From an uncultured Bacteroidota bacterium (GTDB lineage Bacteria > Bacteroidota > Bacteroidia > AKYH767-A > OLB10), in contig CAADHD010000024.1 of assembly GCA_900696575.1 (NCBI GenBank), forward strand, positions 36,818 to 100,817: a stretch of 64,000 nt of DNA, given 5' to 3'. The notes under the pieces were generated by a model that was given only the letters and a program-made list of their open reading frames with translations, was not told the origin of the DNA and did not search any database. Shown here in pieces: positions 27,416 through 35,554 of the stretch (position 1 is its first letter; the number at the start of each line of letters is the position of its first letter). A program made the translations under genes and the position numbers.

Positions 27416-27862
27416 TTATTCGACAGGAAGTTTTTCAATCAACACCATGGGACCGGGACAATGTGTCGTATGACATACCACACAGCCTGAAATGAGGTTA
27501 TTATAGTTTTCCTTCAGATCCTTCTTATTTGACTTTGAAAAATTTTTTAATGCTGCCATGTATAAATCAGCATAACTGTTGTAATACTGATTTTTTGTAG
27601 TGGGTGTTGTAGGGGTGGCAGTATAAATTTTTTCAAACTCGGCAGGATAGCCTTTTGTCGGCTTGTTTTTTAATACCTCTTCGCGTGCTTTAAGCGCATG
27701 CTGATGCATCTTACGCATAAGCAATGACAATTCGCTCGATCCATTCGGATTTAAATCGGTGGAATCAGCAAGCAGTGAAGAAGATTGAAGTTTTCCGTCA
27801 GGGTTAATGGAAACCCCGGAAATGATTGCAAGAAGGATCAAGAAGGCGAAGATGTGTTTCAC
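27416..27862 (-). CDS. Exported protein with C-terminal CxxCH heme-binding motif (cytochrome c'-like helical bundle)
   Basis: GTG start at 27862 gives a signal peptide; LNPNGSSELSLLMRKM and YNNLISGCVVCHTTHCPGP. Confidence 0.6.
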   Translation of the reverse strand: MKHIFAFLILLAIISGVSINPDGKLQSSSLLADSTDLNPNGSSELSLLMRKMHQHALKAREEVLKNKPTKGYPAEFEKIYTATPTTPTTKNQYYNSYADLYMAALKNFSKSNKKDLKENYNNLISGCVVCHTTHCPGPMVLIEKLPVE

Positions 27863-27866
27863 TGTA

Positions 27867-28382
27867 TTATTCGGTTTTATTGAGGTGTTTATTACCGGCA
27901 AAGTATTGAAGTACTGGCAGAAGTTGTTCCGGAGTCTGATATCCTGCAATGACATTGAGCATAGAGAAATTTTCATCCAGCACTACAAAACTGGGATATC
28001 CCATTTTTCCATTAAGCAGCGAAAGGGCAATTTCATTGGCTTTGTACTCAGGACGGAAAACAAAAACCTGATCACGGAAACGGATGGTATCGCGCGATTC
28101 GGCATTGAGCTTTACGGCATGATAATACTGATTCATAAAATCAGTAACCGTATCATTTTTAAAAGTGGTAGCATCCATACGCTTGCACCATCCGCACCAG
28201 TCGGTATAAACATCAATAAATACTTTCTTTTTATCCGATTCAGATTTTCTGACAGCCTCTTCAAAGCCCATCCATTGAATGCCGCCAGGCATGGCTGCTG
28301 AGTTATTTTCTTCTTTTGGCTGACCAGTGCAGGAGGCCATACCGAAGAACAAAATCAAAGTTGAAAAAATACGTGTAGCCAT
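27867..28382 (-). CDS. Thioredoxin-fold lipoprotein (DUF255/SoxW-like)
   Basis: Lipobox-like MASC, IDVYTDWCGWCKRMD, cis-Pro loop GYPS. Confidence 0.85.
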   Translation of the reverse strand: MATRIFSTLILFFGMASCTGQPKEENNSAAMPGGIQWMGFEEAVRKSESDKKKVFIDVYTDWCGWCKRMDATTFKNDTVTDFMNQYYHAVKLNAESRDTIRFRDQVFVFRPEYKANEIALSLLNGKMGYPSFVVLDENFSMLNVIAGYQTPEQLLPVLQYFAGNKHLNKTE

Positions 28383-29991: not shown

Positions 29992-30699
29992 CTAAACTTC
30001 GACCAGAGTGCCAACCGGTTCACCTTCTACTAATCTGACAAGATTGCCGGGCTTATTCATATCAAATACAATGATAGGCAGATTGTTTTCGCGGCAAAGG
30101 GTAAAAGCTGTCATATCCATTACTTTTAAATCGCGCTGAATGGCTTCGGTAAAAGTAATCCTGTCATACCGCTCTGCGTTTTTATCTTTTTCGGGGTCGG
30201 CAGTATAAATACCATCAACACGCGTTCCCTTCAGAATTACATCCGCTTCCACTTCAATGGCACGAAGCGAAGCAGCCGTATCCGTGGTGAAATACGGATT
30301 GCCGGTTCCTGCTCCGAAAATAACCACACGTCCTTTTTCAAGATGGCGAACAGCCCTTCTTCGGATAAAAGGCTCGCAGATGGCTTCCATTTTAATGGCA
30401 GATTGAAGCCGGGTATAAACTCCCAATCCTTCAAGCGCGGTTTGTAACGCCATTGAATTAATTACCGTAGCCAGCATTCCCATATAGTCGCCCTGCACAC
30501 GGTCCATGCCGCCTTCGGCCGCTTGCAATCCGCGAAAGATGTTACCCCCACCTATTACTATAGCAACCTGCGTCTTCCGGTCAACTACGCTTTTAATTTC
30601 ACGGGCATATTGAACCAGTCTGTCGTTATCAATTCCGAATTGTTTGTCGCCCATCAGGGCTTCACCGCTCAGCTTAAGAAGGATTCTTTTGTATTTCAT
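29992..30699 (-). CDS. pyrH: UMP kinase
   Basis: [46 protein letters not shown]. Confidence 0.98.
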
Positions 30700-30717
30700 G
30701 TAATCAGGTTTACGTGG

Positions 30718-30725
30718 CAAAGGTA
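30718..30725 (-). promoter_or_regulatory. Bacteroidota -7 element (TACCTTTG)
   Basis: TAnnTTTG just upstream of pyrH ATG 30699. Confidence 0.6.
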
Positions 30726-30759
30726 AAGCTAGAACTTTTAAAGTCTATCATACTTAGTA

Positions 30760-30804
30760 ACAAAACAAATGAGCACGAACCTGAAAACAGATTCAGTGCT
30801 CATT
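30760..30804 (-). terminator. Probable terminator after the WD40 gene
   Basis: aatgagcac...gtgctcatt stem with a T-rich tail on the minus strand. Confidence 0.55.
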
Positions 30805-30830
30805 GGTAAAAAACAAGTGTATTCGTGCTG

Positions 30831-32057
30831 TTACAATTTTATAAACTTTGTAGTTAGCAAAACACCATTGGCTAAGTCAAACTGTAACGAATAAAATCCA
30901 GGGTTCAGATTTTCAGTTCGGATAATACCGTCCTTAGGTAATGTTCCGTCCTGAATCAGCTGGCCGGAGATTGAAAATATATTATAGGTAACTTCCATAT
31001 TTTTCAGTCCCGTTGAAACAAAATCCTTTACCGGGTTCGGGTGTAAATTGAGTTGCATTACATTACCGGGAAAAGAAACCGAACTGACTAAAGAATGAAT
31101 ATCCCACAGTAAGACCTGATTATTAGAAGTACCGGTAAGTACTTTATTTTCGGTAGGCGACCAGGCTACAGTGTATACTTTACCGGCTCCGGGATTATTA
31201 AAGCTGGCTAACTGAGAGTAGGTATTAAAATTCCAAATACGGGAGGTTTGGTCATTCGATCCGCTGAAAATATAATTTCCGTCAGGTGAAATAGCAAGGC
31301 TTCTTACATCACCGGTATGACCATTGATGGTATAAACAAGAGCGCCCGTACTACGGTTCCAGATTTTAATCTTATCGTCAGCGCTGGCAGAAATAACAAA
31401 GTCATCAGCAGGAGAAAATTTAACATCCAATACATCACCGGTATGGCCGCTTAAAGTATGAATAAGCACGCCAGTGGAGTCCCAAATCTTGATTTTGTCA
31501 TCCTGACCGCAAGTAGCAATATATAAACCAGTATGCGACCAGGCAACTCCGAAAATATATCCTGTATGAGCCGTAATGTTATGAAGCAGTATTCCGGAAG
31601 CTACATCAAAAATTTTCAGCTTATTGTTATTTCCTGCTATTGCAATCCTGTCACTCGTGGGGCTGAAGTCAAGTGCAAAGGCTCCTCCGTTGCCAACATT
31701 GATTGAATTACTCAATTGCGGAGTTCCGGAACTAAGGTTAAACAGCAGCAAATGTCCTAACTCTTCAAGCGCTGCCAGATACGTACCATTACTGCTGAAT
31801 TTAACCCCGGCTGTACACATTAAATTGGAATCAAGCTGATAATCCCAAAGCAAATTGCCGGTTACTACATCCCACAGACGCAGTCTTGTATCATGACACT
31901 CGCTGCCACTCAAAGCTTTGGAGCCATCAGCCGTAAATGCAACACCATAAACCTCGCGAGGATCAGGATGCGAAACATTACTCCAAATCAGATTTTGTGA
32001 AAATGTAAAATGAGAAACTGTTAATAAAAGAATACTAAGTATGATGAGATTTTTCAT
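30831..32057 (-). CDS. Secreted WD40-repeat beta-propeller with T9SS type A CTD
   Basis: About 7 WD repeats (GHTGDVLDVKFSP...SASADDKIKIWN), signal peptide, CTD LHPNPV...IFSISGQL...LNPGFY...TKFIKL. Confidence 0.9.
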   Translation of the reverse strand: MKNLIILSILLLTVSHFTFSQNLIWSNVSHPDPREVYGVAFTADGSKALSGSECHDTRLRLWDVVTGNLLWDYQLDSNLMCTAGVKFSSNGTYLAALEELGHLLLFNLSSGTPQLSNSINVGNGGAFALDFSPTSDRIAIAGNNNKLKIFDVASGILLHNITAHTGYIFGVAWSHTGLYIATCGQDDKIKIWDSTGVLIHTLSGHTGDVLDVKFSPADDFVISASADDKIKIWNRSTGALVYTINGHTGDVRSLAISPDGNYIFSGSNDQTSRIWNFNTYSQLASFNNPGAGKVYTVAWSPTENKVLTGTSNNQVLLWDIHSLVSSVSFPGNVMQLNLHPNPVKDFVSTGLKNMEVTYNIFSISGQLIQDGTLPKDGIIRTENLNPGFYSLQFDLANGVLLTTKFIKL

Positions 32058-32159
32058 TGGTTTAAAATTTTTTAAGTTAAACATAAATTAAGAAATTAAA
32101 TAATAATTTAAGAGACTGCTATTGCTTAAGCCGCATCTCCAGAGACTAATAATCAGTAA

Positions 32160-32328
32160 AGCATTTGTCAGGAGACCTTTTGCATAAATGCTCCACACCC
32201 GTGAAACCCTGAAGCTGTACTGCCGGTCAGGCAGGGATGCCAGCGCGCAGTTCCCTTCAGGGGGTTACAGAGTGCGCGAGGAGGGCTTAAATCCTACAAG
32301 TAATTATTTATGCATGAGGTTTAGGATT
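32160..32328 (-). other. GC-rich structured intergenic segment (candidate cis-regulatory RNA)
   Basis: Inverted repeats ccctgaag/cttcaggg, ctgcc/ggcag, cgcgca/tgcgcg, agcattt/aaatgct and aatccta/taggatt within AT-rich flanks. Confidence 0.4.
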
Positions 32329-32695
32329 AAAAGCCGGGCGGCTTTATTAATTCCGAAAGCCAACCTTTGCAAAGGCGACTTGCAAACTCAGTAATAATAA
32401 TTACTTTTATTAAAATATCAGAAAATAATTTTCTGCTTACGGCCTGAAAAAAGAAATTGAAATCAAAATCTGTCTTTAAATTTTTCTGAGGCATATTTTC
32501 CTTTTGTTCTTCTTCTTTAAGCTGTTTTTTTAGATAACACGAGCCATGACACCGGTTATTCTTCACTTCTCTTTTCTCGCACAAGGTGAAGGAGATGTAT
32601 TCCTGATTTATCTTAAATGAAAACAACGTAAACAGGCAACTAAACATGTTCATACACATCACAGCCGATAAAAGCAGAACTACTACCTGTTTCAT
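32327..32695 (-). CDS. Small membrane/exported protein with a Cys cluster and C-terminal Pro-Pro (DUF2946-like leader type)
   Basis: Hydrophobic N-terminus, INQEYISFTLCEKREVKNNRCHGSCYLKKQL, ends LIKPPGF. Confidence 0.65.
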   Translation of the reverse strand: MKQVVVLLLSAVMCMNMFSCLFTLFSFKINQEYISFTLCEKREVKNNRCHGSCYLKKQLKEEEQKENMPQKNLKTDFDFNFFFQAVSRKLFSDILIKVIIITEFASRLCKGWLSELIKPPGF

Positions 32696-32953
32696 GGCTC
32701 AAAAATATGAATGTGTTTTTAAACATGATTGTATTAGTCAGCTAAGTTTTTGCATCATTTATCAACCAAGACACCCCTTTTTATCAGTAACATACATTCA
32801 AAATATAAAATGACACTTTCTTTTGGCTACCCTGAAAATTCTTTTTGAAATAACAGGATAGGGTAAGCAATATGCATCTGTTTGTTAAATGAAATTCACA
32901 TAGCCAAATATTGCTTTTTAGCGCATTTCCTATCTTAGCACTTCCATTTTAAC

Positions 32954-35554
32954 ATGAAAACCATTCGCAAATTTTTTTTTCCCATTTTACTTTTGTTTTT
33001 TGTTTCAAGTGCCTTTGCCACGCATAACCGTGCCGGAGAAATTACTTACGAACGCGATATTAACAATCCTTTGCTTTACTATTTCACCATCACCACTTAC
33101 ACCAAAACCAGCAGCGCAGCCGACCGCGATACGCTTACACTGGAATGGGGAGATGGAACAAGTTCAGTGCTGCAACGGCAATCAAAAGTAACAGTAGGTC
33201 CAGACATCAGCCGCAATATCTATCAGGGTTCGCATCTCTATCCCGGCCCTTCTACCTATATTGTTTCTATGACTGACCCTAATCGAAATGGGGGAGTGAT
33301 AAACATACCGGGTTCGGTAAACGTTCCTTTTTATATTGAAACCCGGCTTACCATTTCACCTTTTCTTGGTTACAACAACTCCCCTGTATTACTTTACCCA
33401 CCGATTGATGAAGGAGTTATCGGCCAGATTTTCGTTCACAATCCCAATGCTTATGACCCCGATGGTGACAGTCTTTCTTATGAACTGATTGTATGCAAAC
33501 GCGAAGGAGGGTTACCAATACCCGGATATACTTTTCCGGCATCTTCCACTTCGTTTACACTTGATGCAGTAACCGGCAACTTAGTATGGGATACTCCCAT
33601 TGCTTTGGGAGAATACAATGTAGCTTTTCTGATTAAGGAATGGAGAAGCGGAACCATGATAGGATATGTAGAGCGCGATATGCAGATTACTATTTATCCC
33701 GGAAATAACCAGCCGCCAGTCATCCAGTCGCTCAGTGATATTTGTGTGAATGCCGGTGACCTGATAGCCTTTAATGTAACAGCCACTGATCCCAATAATG
33801 AATTAATAACGCTTAGCGCCACAGGAGCGCCTTTTCTTTTCAATCCTGATTCGGCAACCTTTCCTCCTGTTTCGGCTACCGGTTCTGTTACCGGAACATT
33901 TGAATGGCTTACAAGCTGTGCACACGTACGCAGAAGTCCTTACCAGGTGCTGTTTACAGCAAGAGATAATAATCCACAGGTTGCACTTACTGCATTGAAA
34001 ATGGTGAACATAACGGTGGTAGGCCCGGCCCCTCAGAATCCTACGGCTGTGTCTTTAGGCAACAGCATCATCCTTAACTGGAATCAAAGCGCCTGCCCGC
34101 AGGCAAAAGGATATCACATTTACAGACGAATGGGATTTTACGGCTTTACTCCTGCACAGTGCGAAACCGGAGTTCCGGCTTATACCGGTTATTCTAAAAT
34201 TGCAACCATAACCGGTTTAACCAATACCACCTACACGGATAATAACAACGGTGCCGGCCTGATACATGGAAACGACTATTGCTATATGATAGTAGCCTAT
34301 TATCCTGACGGAGCCTTGAGTTATGCTTCGGCTGAAGTTTGTGCCGCATTAAAAAAAGATATTCCTGTAATTACCAATGTCAGCGTTACAACTACAGATG
34401 CCTCTAACGGCACTATGTATGTAGCCTGGAGTAAACCTACCGAATTAGATACTGTTGCCTTTCCCGGTCCTTATGAATACCGGTTGCTCAGAGGAAACGG
34501 AATTAACGGAGTTAATTTTTTACAGATTGCTTCTTTCACTGATTTGAATGATACTATTTTTAATGATGCAGGTTTGAATACTGCAAACGGAGCTTTTACT
34601 TACAAAATAGAATTGCATAACAATTCCAATGGGTTCATTGGCAAATCAGCCAATGCTTCTTCTCCATTCCTGCAGATTATTCCCACCGATAAAAAGCTGA
34701 TTTTAAACTGGAGTTTATCTGTACCATGGATTAACAGCAGCTATGAAATTTTCAGATGGAATGGTGCTAACTGGATTTCCATCGGATTTTCCAACACCAA
34801 TTCATTTGAAGATGTCGGGTTAATCAATGGTGATACCTACTGCTACTTTATTCAAACCATAGGCGATTATTCTTCGCCCGGCTTTGTAAGCCCGATTCTG
34901 AACAACTCTCAGGAAGTATGTGCCAGCCCGTTTGATAATGTTCCGCCTTGCGCTATTAATTCATTGGACCGATTCAACTTCAATTGTGCCGAAGGCGAGC
35001 TTACTTTGATTTGGAATGTTCCCGATTTTGATTGCGCACCTGATTTCAGCCATTACATCGTGTATTATGCTCCTGATGAAAATTTGCCATACAGCGTAGT
35101 GGCCGTCATCAATCAGATTTCACAAAACTCTTTTTCCATTTCCAATCCTGATTCTGTTGCGGGTTGTTATTATGTAACGGCTGTTGATACCGTAGGCAAT
35201 GAAAGCCTCAGAGGCAATGTGATTTGTTTTGAGAATTGTCCATTCTACGAACTACCTAATGTATTTACTCCGGACGGAAACGGATTGAATGATTTGTTTC
35301 AACCTTTCCCTTACCGGTATGTTGACCGGGTGGAGATTACCATTGTAAACCGCTGGGGGCAGAAAGTTTTCTCTACTACCAATCCTGATATCAACTGGAA
35401 CGGAAAACTAAATAACACAGGAGCACTTCTTCCTGACGGAGTGTATTACTACTACGGAAAAGTATTTGAGCGGTATCGGAGCGGTCTGCGAGAAAGGCAA
35501 CTGAAACCAGGCTTTGTTCAGATGATTCATAACATCGGAAATCAGAAAAATTAA
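32954..35554 (+). CDS. T9SS type B (CHU_C) cargo protein
   Basis: ATHNRAGEITY, DPDGDSLSYEL, FN3-like repeats, CTD LPNVFTPDGNGLND...NRWGQKVF...WNG...PDGVYYY. Confidence 0.9.
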   Translation: MKTIRKFFFPILLLFFVSSAFATHNRAGEITYERDINNPLLYYFTITTYTKTSSAADRDTLTLEWGDGTSSVLQRQSKVTVGPDISRNIYQGSHLYPGPSTYIVSMTDPNRNGGVINIPGSVNVPFYIETRLTISPFLGYNNSPVLLYPPIDEGVIGQIFVHNPNAYDPDGDSLSYELIVCKREGGLPIPGYTFPASSTSFTLDAVTGNLVWDTPIALGEYNVAFLIKEWRSGTMIGYVERDMQITIYPGNNQPPVIQSLSDICVNAGDLIAFNVTATDPNNELITLSATGAPFLFNPDSATFPPVSATGSVTGTFEWLTSCAHVRRSPYQVLFTARDNNPQVALTALKMVNITVVGPAPQNPTAVSLGNSIILNWNQSACPQAKGYHIYRRMGFYGFTPAQCETGVPAYTGYSKIATITGLTNTTYTDNNNGAGLIHGNDYCYMIVAYYPDGALSYASAEVCAALKKDIPVITNVSVTTTDASNGTMYVAWSKPTELDTVAFPGPYEYRLLRGNGINGVNFLQIASFTDLNDTIFNDAGLNTANGAFTYKIELHNNSNGFIGKSANASSPFLQIIPTDKKLILNWSLSVPWINSSYEIFRWNGANWISIGFSNTNSFEDVGLINGDTYCYFIQTIGDYSSPGFVSPILNNSQEVCASPFDNVPPCAINSLDRFNFNCAEGELTLIWNVPDFDCAPDFSHYIVYYAPDENLPYSVVAVINQISQNSFSISNPDSVAGCYYVTAVDTVGNESLRGNVICFENCPFYELPNVFTPDGNGLNDLFQPFPYRYVDRVEITIVNRWGQKVFSTTNPDINWNGKLNNTGALLPDGVYYYYGKVFERYRSGLRERQLKPGFVQMIHNIGNQKN

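Follow-up and report, generated by a model that had tools for sequence, protein, structure and literature searches.

CruR (Bp2923) of Bordetella pertussis, a member of the DUF2946 family (PF11162), is described by Roy et al. (2022; PMC9426467) as the leader of the cruR-bfrG(crtA)-bp2921 operon. According to the same account, DUF2946 genes head units that encode TBDT, PepSY_TM, Sco, PCuAC, YcnI, CopC and MbnPH proteins, they are followed by long spacers, and the Cys-to-PP spacing is 45, varying by one or two residues. Arrest on CruR has been demonstrated in vitro (PMC12992588). CutF of Rhodobacter capsulatus (cutFOG), which is encoded upstream of a copper gene, is reported to act solely in cis (PMC9973294; bioRxiv 10.1101/2025.02.05.636593), and the CutF protein was undetected in membranes in the experiments reported in PMC9973294. 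The RAPP-like ('RQH family') arrest peptides include ApdA/ApdP and uORFs located upstream of secA/secDF in Bacteroidales and Flavobacteriales (Fujiwara et al., 2024; PMC10987492), so leaders that act by arrest are at work in Bacteroidota as well; the RAPP-like leaders from this phylum are reported in that study to stall poorly on E. coli ribosomes.

The window, which is the whole 64,000-nt stretch of DNA analyzed here, contains a small ORF followed by a gene for a secreted WD40 protein. The reading that we favor, at a probability of roughly 0.5, is built on analogy with CruR: the small ORF would belong to a family of copper-operon leaders that act by CruR-like pausing, with the WD40 gene as its cargo. 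The features of the locus are given below as positions within the window.

32700..32707, minus strand: promoter box TATTTTTG, which matches the -7 consensus of Bacteroidota, TAnnTTTG, perfectly
32327..32695, minus strand: small ORF of 122 aa, stop codon included, of a so far unnamed Cys3 / C-terminal Pro-Pro family of Bacteroidota
32609..32692, minus strand: N-terminal hydrophobic helix, codons 2-29, assigned from sequence, AlphaFold2 and family conservation
32537..32581, minus strand: Cys cluster C-x9-C-x-G-x-C (CEKREVKNNRCHGSC), codons 39-53, a putative periplasmic metal-binding motif
32336..32341, minus strand: Pro-Pro, codons 119-120, in K-P-P-G-F-stop, 2 residues ahead of the stop, a putative ribosome pause site
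32058..32326, minus strand: spacer that separates the small ORF from WD40, with a length of 269 nt if measured to the ATG at 32057 and of 242 nt to that at 32084
~32173..32322, minus strand: interspersed repeat of ~150 nt, the inverted ends of which (..ACCTCATGCATAAAT / ATTTATGCAAAAGGTCT) close a GC-rich hairpin
32058..32125, minus strand: conserved AT-rich block of 68 nt ahead of the WD40 start, kept in genomes G475 and G471
30831..32057, minus strand: WD40 beta-propeller ending in a T9SS type A sorting domain, the putative regulated cargo

The small ORF reads from an ATG at 32695 to 32327 on the minus strand and encodes 122 residues. The N-terminus (MKQVVVLLLSAVMCMNMFSCLFTLFSF) is hydrophobic, with K2 followed by a hydrophobic run at residues 4-27. 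AlphaFold2 places a helix at residues 2-29 (pLDDT 92-96), and the length and character of this region are kept across the family alignment; the helix is predicted to be an export signal or a membrane anchor. Three Cys residues follow in LCEKREVKNNRCHGSCYL, which reads as C39-x9-C49-x3-C53. The protein contains no CXXC; C49-H-G-S-C53 is a CxxxC, which forms C-x9-C-x-G-x-C together with C39. The C-terminus is L-I-K-P-P-G-F, and 66 residues separate the third Cys from the first Pro. The first-pass annotation had described this same 122-aa ORF (32327-32695, minus strand) with its hydrophobic N-terminus and KPPGF end, and the sequence and the AlphaFold2 helix bear it out; the Cys cluster reported there is also present, its motif being C-x9-C-x-G-x-C, not CxxC. 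Residues 1-67 are modelled with a pLDDT of 88-96 and residues 71-100 with a pLDDT of 55-61, a profile that would fit a sensor head with a spacer under little constraint behind it.

A phmmer search with the small ORF returned 2044 cluster representatives at E<=1e-3 (clusters at 50% identity), the best of them at E 2.7e-47, and in a sample of 401 genomes of the phylum, 147 contain a match to the family profile. The ORF itself matches the family profile at E 7.6e-40 and 2.2e-41. No Pfam or NCBIfam model covers this family, and its members are named 'hypothetical protein' at source, one stray label excepted. They share a layout of ~120-130 aa (about 125), in which the export/anchor helix is directly followed by C-x9-C-x-G-x-C, then by a poorly conserved linker of ~65 residues and by [F]-[H/R/K/Q]-P-P located 2-4 residues ahead of the stop. 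Conservation ceases at about residue 67, and ~45 residues without consensus precede the invariant PP. C39, C49, G51, C53, P119 and P120 are invariant in 77/77 aligned members, window ORF included, so the conservation of the Cys and Pro-Pro residues in homologues, on which the first-pass annotation had let its proposal turn, was confirmed. Both motifs occur in 233 of 248 family sequences. Among these 233, the 15-residue span of the Cys cluster is exact in 228, the Cys-to-Pro distance is 64-69 in 214 (full range 62-72), 2-4 residues follow PP in 187 (2 in the window ORF), and position -1 of the PP motif is occupied by H, R, K or Q in 206. The I-K-P-P of the window belongs to a minority (I at -2 in 10/233, K at -1 in 17/233). 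The small ORF is at most 43% identical to every relative except P0002, which is 75% identical and retains all of the invariant residues; when metagenomes were scanned for the surroundings of P0002, a single 20-residue match (L098) came up and no P0002 neighborhood was recovered. As judged from these matches, the small ORF is an intact member of the family, beyond chance.

Members of this family resemble CruR, as portrayed in the reports cited above, in being small first genes whose products begin with a predicted export signal, contain a Cys motif and have a Pro-Pro near the C-terminus (~3 residues from it in CruR). A conserved Cys-to-PP distance, a long spacer and cargo comprising TonB receptor with PepSY_TM, MbnPH-like and Sco proteins are also common to both. 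They differ from the published CruR in having no detectable sequence similarity to it, in their motifs (C-x9-C-x-G-x-C where CruR has CXXC, and [F][HRKQ]PP where it has RAPP), and in a spacing of ~66 versus 45 with a wider spread. Furthermore, unlike that of CruR, the host is a low-GC member of the Bacteroidota with leaderless mRNAs, and a T9SS WD40 propeller occurs as cargo. PF11162 matches 0/77 aligned members at E<=0.01, and the window ORF not even at E<=0.1; the source genome contains no PF11162 match anywhere, and the control genomes of Caulobacter and Deinococcus did match. The likeness to DUF2946 is therefore an analogy, or a homology too distant to detect. The proposal in the first-pass annotation that the ORF is a Bacteroidota analogue of CruR and CutF is supported, by comparison, in the shared anatomy and the same kinds of operon; by sequence the ORF does not belong to DUF2946. 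DUF6660 and DUF6769 ('DUF2946 domain-containing') are leads as relatives, at a score of 0.89 each. PF20365 has no match in the source genome, and the control genomes likewise have none; the match of PF20558 in the source genome is sub-threshold, and PF20558 matches 2 of 201 sampled phylum genomes, too few for a profile comparison.

The resemblance to CutF, again as far as the published descriptions go, would lie in an exported nascent sensor with a CxxxC (C49-HGS-C53 in the window) and a C-terminal proline motif. CutF is described as melting a stem-loop that hides a Shine-Dalgarno site, and no comparable conserved hairpin was found for the family; its cleavable signal peptide, PPP repeat and multicopper oxidase cargo are likewise unlike the window unit. 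The RAPP-like peptides, in the description of Fujiwara et al., share with the family an N-terminal membrane-targeting region and a Pro-containing C-terminal motif that follows R, Q or H. Their motif is [R/Q/H]-[A/G]-P-[P/G] and they monitor Sec/YidC, whereas the small-ORF family lacks the A/G position, possesses a Cys cluster and heads metal-type operons. The window ORF does not classify as RAPP-like, with its L-I-K-P-P-G-F end and a WD40/T9SS neighbor, not sec/yidC. The arrest motifs presented as tested in these sources are RAPP, RGPP and RAPG, and [F][HRKQ]PP is not among them (PMC12992588; PMC10987492).

The G of the promoter box is located only 4 nt ahead of the ATG of the small ORF, which predicts an mRNA with little or no leader. 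Bacteroidota are largely without Shine-Dalgarno sites. A scan of the minus strand from 30726 to 32699, spacer included, found no second perfect TAnnTTTG, and the four remaining WD40-type loci of the bacterial family have none in their spacers either. Across the family loci, which are relatives taken from ranked match lists and not independent samples, a perfect TAnnTTTG abuts the start in 55/97, compared with 5/94 spacers, which are twice as long. The G of the box lies 116-148 nt ahead of the first Cys codon, with the same geometry as in the window. The downstream neighbor is co-oriented in 96 of 97 loci, the remaining locus having reached the end of its sequence, and the spacer that separates the two has a median of 95 nt, against 27 nt at the following junction. 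Family members, as these sequences indicate, usually open their unit, promoter-proximal and often leaderless.

The genes downstream of the family members encode outer-membrane and periplasmic proteins of copper type. The first gene (n=96) encodes a TonB receptor in 32 loci, MbnP in 21, a YtkA-like protein in 12, a Phenol_MetA_deg-type barrel in 6, YHS in 2 and CCP_MauG in 1, and has no Pfam match in 22. The second gene (n=80) encodes CCP_MauG in 20, a TonB receptor in 14, PepSY_TM in 7, SCO1/SenC in 7, MbnP in 2, DJ-1 in 2 and other proteins in 12, with no match in 16. The units headed by the family are of several types: TonB receptor with PepSY_TM, MbnP with the MbnH-type peroxidase, YtkA-like protein with receptor, and porin-like barrel with Sco1. 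MbnP/MbnH (PF20243, PF03150), which are copper-acquisition pairs, form the commonest non-receptor cargo of the family and are not leaders. The window unit has neither; the MbnPH operon of the source genome lies on another contig (C18:87598-90950), where a second family member is followed by MbnP, an MbnH-like protein and a barrel. On these profile matches and neighborhoods, it is nearly certain that the small ORF belongs to the family and that the family is linked to copper-type operons.

The WD40 protein matches PF00400 (E 1.8e-47) and TIGR04183 (E 3.7e-12), in agreement with the first-pass annotation, which had placed a co-oriented T9SS WD40 gene directly downstream. Its start at 32057 was chosen by alignment with the starts of orthologues; the longest ORF begins at 32084. 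Of the 83 genomes in the bacterial family, 5 contain a WD40 homologue at E<=1e-60, and a co-oriented family ORF lies upstream in all five. In a class-wide sample, 14 more WD40 homologues have a family ORF upstream in 7 cases and none in 6, with one locus cut by a contig end, which gives 7/13 informative loci. The tabulation of downstream genes that the first-pass annotation had envisaged yielded outer-membrane and copper-type cargo; seen from the WD40 side, 5/5 homologues in the bacterial family and 7/13 elsewhere in the class have a family ORF upstream. TIGR04183 is present in 10/10 tested WD40 homologues of positive loci, and in three genomes (G003, G662 and G753) MbnP/MbnH lie in one cluster with the WD40 homologue. 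This recurrence in the sequences indicates that the position of the small ORF next to a WD40/T9SS gene is not an accident but that of a recurrent partner, and that the unit holds a T9SS-secreted WD40 propeller in several lineages, including that of the window. The small-ORF copy of G471 has lost its PP end, with a frame break in a T run, and neither the small ORF nor the WD40 gene was found with these queries in G001, a genome of the same genus that is 99% complete. When the window ORF was ranked by phmmer against 108 family ORFs (97 other locus ORFs, 10 WD40-linked ORFs and the source-genome paralogue), the WD40-linked copies did not group at the top. The WD40-linked ORFs are thus not the closest to the window ORF, which gives no sign of a WD40-specific subfamily.

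The core of the spacer has a GC content of 0.52-0.59, compared with ~0.3 around it, and can fold into a long hairpin. The length of the spacer (269 nt) agrees with the spacer of about 270 bp in the first-pass annotation; its description as structured is not confirmed, as the minimum free energy is -69.4 kcal/mol versus -62.6 +/- 4.7 for shuffles (z -1.44), with 19 of 200 shuffles as stable or more. The Rfam 15 covariance models found no family inside the spacer at E<=1 (30000-34000). The sole match in that search, P9, was rejected at 23.2 bits against a gathering threshold of 43 (E 0.074); it covers 32329-32401, the last codons of the ORF, and sits on a hairpin formed by the K-P-P-G-F codons. 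The GC-rich core corresponds to the repeat, for which nhmmer detects copies at C24:27957-28113 (E 1.2e-9), C25:317136-317279 (E 1.1e-7) and C17:79154-79259 (E 0.0013), and a weak copy at C32:39795-39883 (E 0.68). All five copies lie between co-oriented genes and in the orientation of those genes, and the neighbors are unrelated. A search of 82 other genomes of the bacterial family did not find the repeat, and by alignment it is absent from the G475 and G471 spacers. As judged from these comparisons, the GC-rich spacer 'structure' is a later, genome-specific repeat insertion and no dedicated switch. Against the leader reading, the Cys-to-Pro spacing is looser than that reported for DUF2946, and the 150-nt repeat between the ORF and the WD40 gene could uncouple both.

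The alignment with G475 and G471 holds 57 invariant columns from 32125 to 32041, and the WD40 proteins are only 59% identical; the block at 32058-32125 may be a cis-element for WD40 expression. Across the family spacers, no recurrent RNA device was found. Terminator-like hairpins after the stop codon are limited to 13 of 97 loci, which gives no general attenuator, and 62 of 89 spacers have more C than G, a bias too slight to make a case for rut sites. Genes for Rho and EF-P are present in the source genome. RNA-library contigs cover the small ORF in 4/4 runs from 2 studies, spanning 32226-32684, although DNA may be present in these libraries. They extend 47-101 nt beyond the ORF stop and end inside the repeat, at 32226-32280. 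The WD40 gene is covered by separate contigs, and no contig covers 32086-32225 or joins both genes; this uncovered stretch speaks neither for nor against co-transcription.

Under the leader reading, the nascent chain of the small ORF would be exported during translation, by analogy with CruR and CutF, so that the Cys cluster would already be on the periplasmic side when the ribosome reaches Pro-Pro. A metal, probably copper, bound at the Cys cluster would alter the dwell of the ribosome at Pro-Pro beside the stop codon, and the dwell time would decide whether transcription or translation proceeds into the downstream gene. Here that gene encodes the WD40 propeller, possibly a cell-surface protein for the capture of copper or a ligand. 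Whether the small-ORF protein is such a cis-acting sensor and leader through Pro-Pro pausing is an even bet on this analogy, and its control over the WD40 gene in the source genome is given slightly poorer odds.

The same operon co-occurrence would be shown by a structural subunit, and the small protein may instead belong to the uptake machinery as a stable component, anchored in the inner membrane and serving in the periplasm as a Cys3 metallochaperone or as a thiol-redox partner of MbnP/MbnH, the receptors or WD40, with F-H-P-P as a docking motif. The well-conserved N-terminal 67 residues with their confident AlphaFold2 model, the three invariant Cys that could form a metal site, and a Cys-to-Pro tolerance (62-72) looser than that of CruR are all compatible with this role. 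However, ~45 non-consensus residues followed by an invariant PP near the stop form a pattern typical of arrest leaders, the gene comes first in its unit with an unusually long spacer behind it (median 95 nt vs 27 nt), and a cargo as varied as receptor, MbnPH, Sco1 and WD40 is more in keeping with a regulator than with a dedicated subunit. We consider a stable subunit rather unlikely. An equally doubtful alternative concerns the locus instead of the protein: the repeat would end the small-ORF transcript and the WD40 gene would use its own non-consensus promoter in 32058-32125, leaving the small ORF an orphan or active in trans only. The placement and orientation of all 5/5 repeat copies between co-oriented genes would suit a terminator or RNA-end element, the RNA-library contigs stop within the repeat, the 68-nt block is conserved with G475 and G471, and a canonical copper operon with its own leader exists elsewhere in the source genome. 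Against two separate units stand the lack of a perfect TAnnTTTG in the window spacer and the four other WD40-type spacers, a consensus scan that found 0 terminators (and 4 sigma-70-like sites vs 3.5 expected, with a sigma-70 consensus inapplicable to this phylum), the retention of every invariant residue in the small ORF and in P0002, by which the small ORF has not been released from selection, and the fact that the ends of RNA-library contigs are not RNA ends.

Decay of the small ORF into a functionless paralogue, stranded next to WD40 once the remainder of a G003-like operon had been lost, is very improbable. The ORF is divergent, its -2/-1 residues (IK) are atypical, G001 yields neither gene with these queries and the G471 copy has lost its PP end; yet the six invariant residues, the spacing of 66 and the tail of 2 are all retained, in P0002 too, the promoter box is intact, and RNA-library contigs cover the ORF in every run. 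The switchable RNA that the first-pass annotation had proposed for the spacer, a riboswitch-like or similar element controlling WD40 by itself, is largely refuted and has the least claim of all. A 269-nt spacer with a GC-rich core able to form a long hairpin had invited it, but the fold is no better than that of shuffles, no Rfam family matches, and the core is a repeat found beside unrelated genes and missing from the G475 and G471 spacers, and a search of 82 related genomes did not find it.

More broadly, and tentatively by the same analogy, Bacteroidota may possess their own phylum-wide, leaderless Cys3 sensor peptides, co-translationally exported and provided with an F-H-P-P stall site. 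Replacing the DUF2946/RAPP leaders, these would couple periplasmic copper to uptake operons and, in several lineages including that of the window, also to a T9SS-secreted WD40 propeller that would capture copper, or a carrier of it, at the cell surface. Only DUF2946 proteins of Proteobacteria have been shown to sense copper post-transcriptionally as nascent exported peptides; if the leader reading is true, the family would fill the Bacteroidota gap by a different sequence solution and would provide a second independent test case for how periplasmic metal reaches the ribosome. Naming the family would annotate thousands of genes and mark their operons as copper-regulated. The repeated pairing with a T9SS WD40 protein points to a so far unstudied component, at the cell surface, of how Bacteroidota from wastewater and soil acquire copper.

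The small ORF of the window has an ATG start and is followed on the same strand by a WD40 propeller gene. The first-pass annotation had described a hydrophobic N-terminus, a Cys cluster and a KPPGF end, all of which are seen in the translation: the hydrophobic run is MKQVVVLLLSAVMCMNMFSCLFTLFSF, the cluster is LCEKREVKNNRCHGSCYL (C39-x9-C49-x3-C53) and the C-terminus reads ...ELIKPPGF. The T9SS WD40 propeller placed directly downstream in the same orientation is likewise borne out (PF00400, E 1.8e-47), and its protein carries a T9SS type A sorting domain (TIGR04183, E 3.7e-12). The local features are as follows.

32700-32707, minus strand: TAnnTTTG box, 4 nt before the ATG of the small ORF
32695 to 32327, minus strand: small ORF, 122 aa, read from the sequence
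32336-32341, minus strand: Pro codons CCG CCC of the small ORF, read from the sequence
32173-32322, minus strand: interspersed repeat, about 150 nt long, with inverted ends that close a GC-rich hairpin

Elsewhere in the window, a 186-aa ORF ending in a CVVCH haem-c-like motif (27416-27976, minus strand) overlaps a 171-aa thioredoxin-like ORF of the DsbH/Thioredoxin_7 families (27867-28382, minus strand), and one of the two start calls must be wrong. As far as seen, the pair has no relation to the leader finding.

No Pfam or NCBIfam model matched the window ORF above curated cut-offs. Pfam DAN (E 0.011, 16.1 bits against a cut-off of 22) and NCBIfam DppA (E 0.042) were rejected as its identity, both falling far below. 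A word-indexed protein search returned only the window's own protein and one close relative (P0002, 75% identity), and an exhaustive phmmer search returned 2044 cluster representatives at E<=1e-3, nearly all of 120-130 aa. The Cys and Pro-Pro residues, the conservation of which was at stake in the first-pass annotation, are invariant in an alignment of 77 members (C39, C49, G51, C53, P119 and P120); N30, I34, L55 and K57 are nearly invariant, and residues about 70-115 have no consensus. None of the 77 matched a relevant family model at E<=0.01. A profile search of proteins gave 1441 matches, and a precomputed Pfam domain was absent from all of the best 120 of these. Among the matches listed, any name given by a source is 'hypothetical protein' except for a stray JGI label 'FliL', and the named sources are Bacteroidota, Bacteroidia, Saprospiraceae, Chitinophagales, Thermonemataceae and Ferruginibacter. 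The profile matches 30 of 61 genomes of close relatives and 147 of 401 genomes sampled across the phylum; the genome tallies include one unpublished genome (G034), as a count only. Full-text literature on DUF2946/copper, MbnP/MbnH, CruR, arrest peptides and ribosome stalling in Bacteroidota yielded no paper describing the family; supplementary tables may list related ORFs.

Motif geometry was scored in 248 sequences (98 ORFs of fetched loci and 150 phmmer hits). A C-x(7-12)-C-x-G-x-C cluster and a C-terminal PP are both present in 233. Seven have the cluster without PP, and eight have a shorter Cys spacing outside the search pattern, which left their PP unscored; all eight end in PP plus a few residues. 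Within the 233, the third Cys lies 62-72 residues from the first Pro, with one outlier at 78; the distance is 64-69 in 214 and 66 in the window. PP is followed by 2-4 residues in 187 (two in the window); the residue before it is H in 133, R in 40, K in 17 and Q in 16, and the second residue before PP is F in 177. AlphaFold2 run on the alignment predicts helices at 2-29, 31-38 and 52-67 (pLDDT about 88-96), with a pLDDT of only 55-61 across residues 71-100. Taken together, the motif spacing, the conservation and the predicted fold give the architecture of the family: a conserved head, a loosely constrained linker and, almost always equally far from the head, an invariant PP beside the stop.

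An HMM built from the alignment found 98 family ORFs in the window and 91 fetched loci. Eleven of these loci came from the search of close relatives' genomes. The other 80 were picked down the ranked list of the phylum-wide search so that the number of genomes covered was as large as possible; this is no random sampling, and related genomes do not count as independent. Of the 97 non-window ORFs, 96 are followed by a co-oriented gene, and the sequence of the remaining locus runs out. The median spacer after the family ORF is 95 nt, compared with 27 nt at the following junction. The Bacteroidota -7 promoter consensus is TAnnTTTG. A perfect copy occurs within 60 nt before the family-ORF start in 55 of 97 loci, and in only 5 of 94 spacers (mean length 132 nt). 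The window spacer has none. The G of the box lies 116-148 nt upstream of the first Cys codon, and the distance from the start codon to that Cys is typically 38 codons; the family mRNAs are therefore predicted to be leaderless or short-leadered.

The tally of downstream genes across Bacteroidota that the first-pass annotation had proposed gives the following cargo.

Pfam assignment of genes downstream of the family ORF
First gene (n=96): TonB-dependent receptor 32; MbnP 21; YtkA-like 12; Phenol_MetA_deg-type barrel 6; YHS 2; CCP_MauG (MbnH-type peroxidase) 1; no Pfam match 22
Second gene (n=80): CCP_MauG (MbnH-type peroxidase) 20; TonB-dependent receptor 14; PepSY_TM 7; SCO1/SenC 7; MbnP 2; DJ-1 2; other 12; no Pfam match 16

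No WD40 gene is among the 96 first genes. The window's own genome has a second, canonical family copy heading an operon (C18:87598-90950, minus strand), in which a 123-aa small ORF (..GIFHPPRA) is followed by an MbnP-like protein (268 aa), an MbnH-like/di-haem peroxidase-like protein (345 aa) and a barrel-like protein with a CDVCGC motif (343 aa). Roy et al. 2022 (PMC9426467) describe DUF2946 genes heading operons with TBDT and/or PepSY_TM, Sco, PCuAC, YcnI, CopC and MbnPH-like genes, with long spacers. Both the anatomy and the cargo of the Bacteroidota family closely parallel these; PF11162, the DUF2946 model, had no match in the window's own genome.

Another kind of small leader-like ORF was observed in the same genome (C16:54852-55268, the same locus as L102:1471-1887, plus strand). 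Its 138 aa begin with a hydrophobic segment, include a long run rich in His and carry ..DQPPPYQ.. close to the C-terminus, with a weak, sub-threshold match to DUF6769 (19.2 bits). It lies 30 nt upstream of a putative efflux operon, as suggested by TolC-like, membrane-fusion-like (HGD motif) and RND-pump-like genes recognized by eye from translations.

The WD40 partner of the family ORF is conserved. A WD40 homologue at E<=1e-60 is held by 5 of the 83 genomes of the bacterial family to which the organism belongs, and in each of these a family ORF precedes the WD40 gene on the same strand. The other four loci are arranged as follows.

G475: 126-aa ORF ending ..VFHPPAIAVC, 102 nt, WD40
G471: arranged as G475; small-ORF frame broken in a T run, PP end gone
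G003: small ORF, barrel (two ORFs), WD40, MbnP, MbnH-like
G490: small ORF, 136-aa ORF, T9SS protein, WD40

In G471 (L099:8490-8822, minus strand), the ..VFHPPAIAVC end is lost by a one-base T-run difference from G475; misassembly, phase variation or decay may account for this. The G003 barrel gene (CDFCNC motif; L097:5614-6572, plus strand) is split into overlapping ORFs (198 and 144 aa), through either a genuine frameshift or an error in sequencing. The class-wide sample has a WD40 homologue at E<=1e-50 in 15 of 401 genomes. Among the 14 besides the window's, seven have a co-oriented family ORF upstream within three genes, six have none upstream in the sequence fetched (only 336 nt in L107) and one is cut at a contig end. 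The family ORF directly adjoins the WD40 gene, 77 nt apart, in L113; MbnP and a barrel are also present in L110 and L116; and in L111 (3543-4403, minus strand) and L114 (3223-4089, minus strand) the gene of an AraC-family regulator separates the family ORF from the WD40/T9SS gene. TIGR04183 was found in 10 of 10 WD40 homologues tested from positive loci. No perfect TAnnTTTG occurs in the spacers of the five bacterial-family loci, and one abuts the small ORF in the window and G490. The window ORF is not especially close to WD40-linked family members.

The first-pass annotation placed a structured, switchable RNA of about 270 bp between the two genes. The length stands, at 269 nt if the WD40 gene begins at 32057, the ATG that matches the orthologue starts in alignment (242 nt up to the first ATG). 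The structure does not: the fold has a z of -1.44, with 19 of 200 shuffles folding at least as well, and the spacer has no Rfam family at E<=1 and no terminator-like site by consensus scan. Further copies of the repeat were found by nhmmer in the same genome at C24:27957-28113, C25:317136-317279 and C17:79154-79259, and weakly at C32:39795-39883. All five copies lie between co-oriented genes and are oriented like them. The repeat has no Rfam family and was absent from the 82 other genomes of the bacterial family by a BLAST-type search, and it is missing from the spacers of G475 and G471. Possible identities are a terminator or RNA-end element and a small non-autonomous mobile element. Minus this insertion about 120 nt of spacer would remain, an ordinary length for the family. 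The 68 nt directly before the WD40 start (32058-32125, minus strand) are conserved with G475 and G471. The distal part of this block lines up with the end of the G475 small ORF, its last codons and stop (..GCAATCGCAGTCTGCTAA). Two readings of the block are a remnant of an earlier ORF end and a cis-element common to these loci.

Metatranscriptome runs (wastewater, a bioreactor) hold 20-33% of the sampled words of window 30700-33000. Four runs from two studies were compared with the window as contigs only. Their contigs (32274-32684, 32280-32684, 32242-32684 and 32226-32651; 0-1 differences each) reach from just inside the ORF start to 47-101 nt beyond the stop, and parts of the WD40 gene lie on separate contigs. 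DNA can be present in RNA libraries, and contigs reveal neither the ends nor the levels of RNA; all that follows is that the ORF region occurs in RNA libraries as a contig of its own. The contig of run X4 departs from the window at 32226, inside the repeat, with 9 unmatched letters, and may come from a strain without the insertion or with a different one.

According to PMC12992588, no RAPP/RGPP uORFs were found for copper-related genes in Bacteroidota, and PMC10987492 shows that RAPP-like and Pro-stop leaders precede sec genes there. The anatomy, first-gene position, cargo and WD40 linkage of the family are shown by comparison. By analogy with CruR and CutF, the copper-sensing leader peptides of Proteobacteria, the nascent chain of the small ORF would be exported during translation. 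At PP, about 66 residues would separate the Cys cluster from the peptidyl-transferase centre, enough to put the cluster across the membrane, and metal binding would alter the ribosome dwell time there. Rho and EF-P are both encoded in the window's own genome. The leader model is weakest at the downstream step, since no RNA hairpin common to the family spacers was found: a ribosome held 2-4 codons before the stop would cover the start of the spacer and, by doing so, may set Rho access or downstream initiation.
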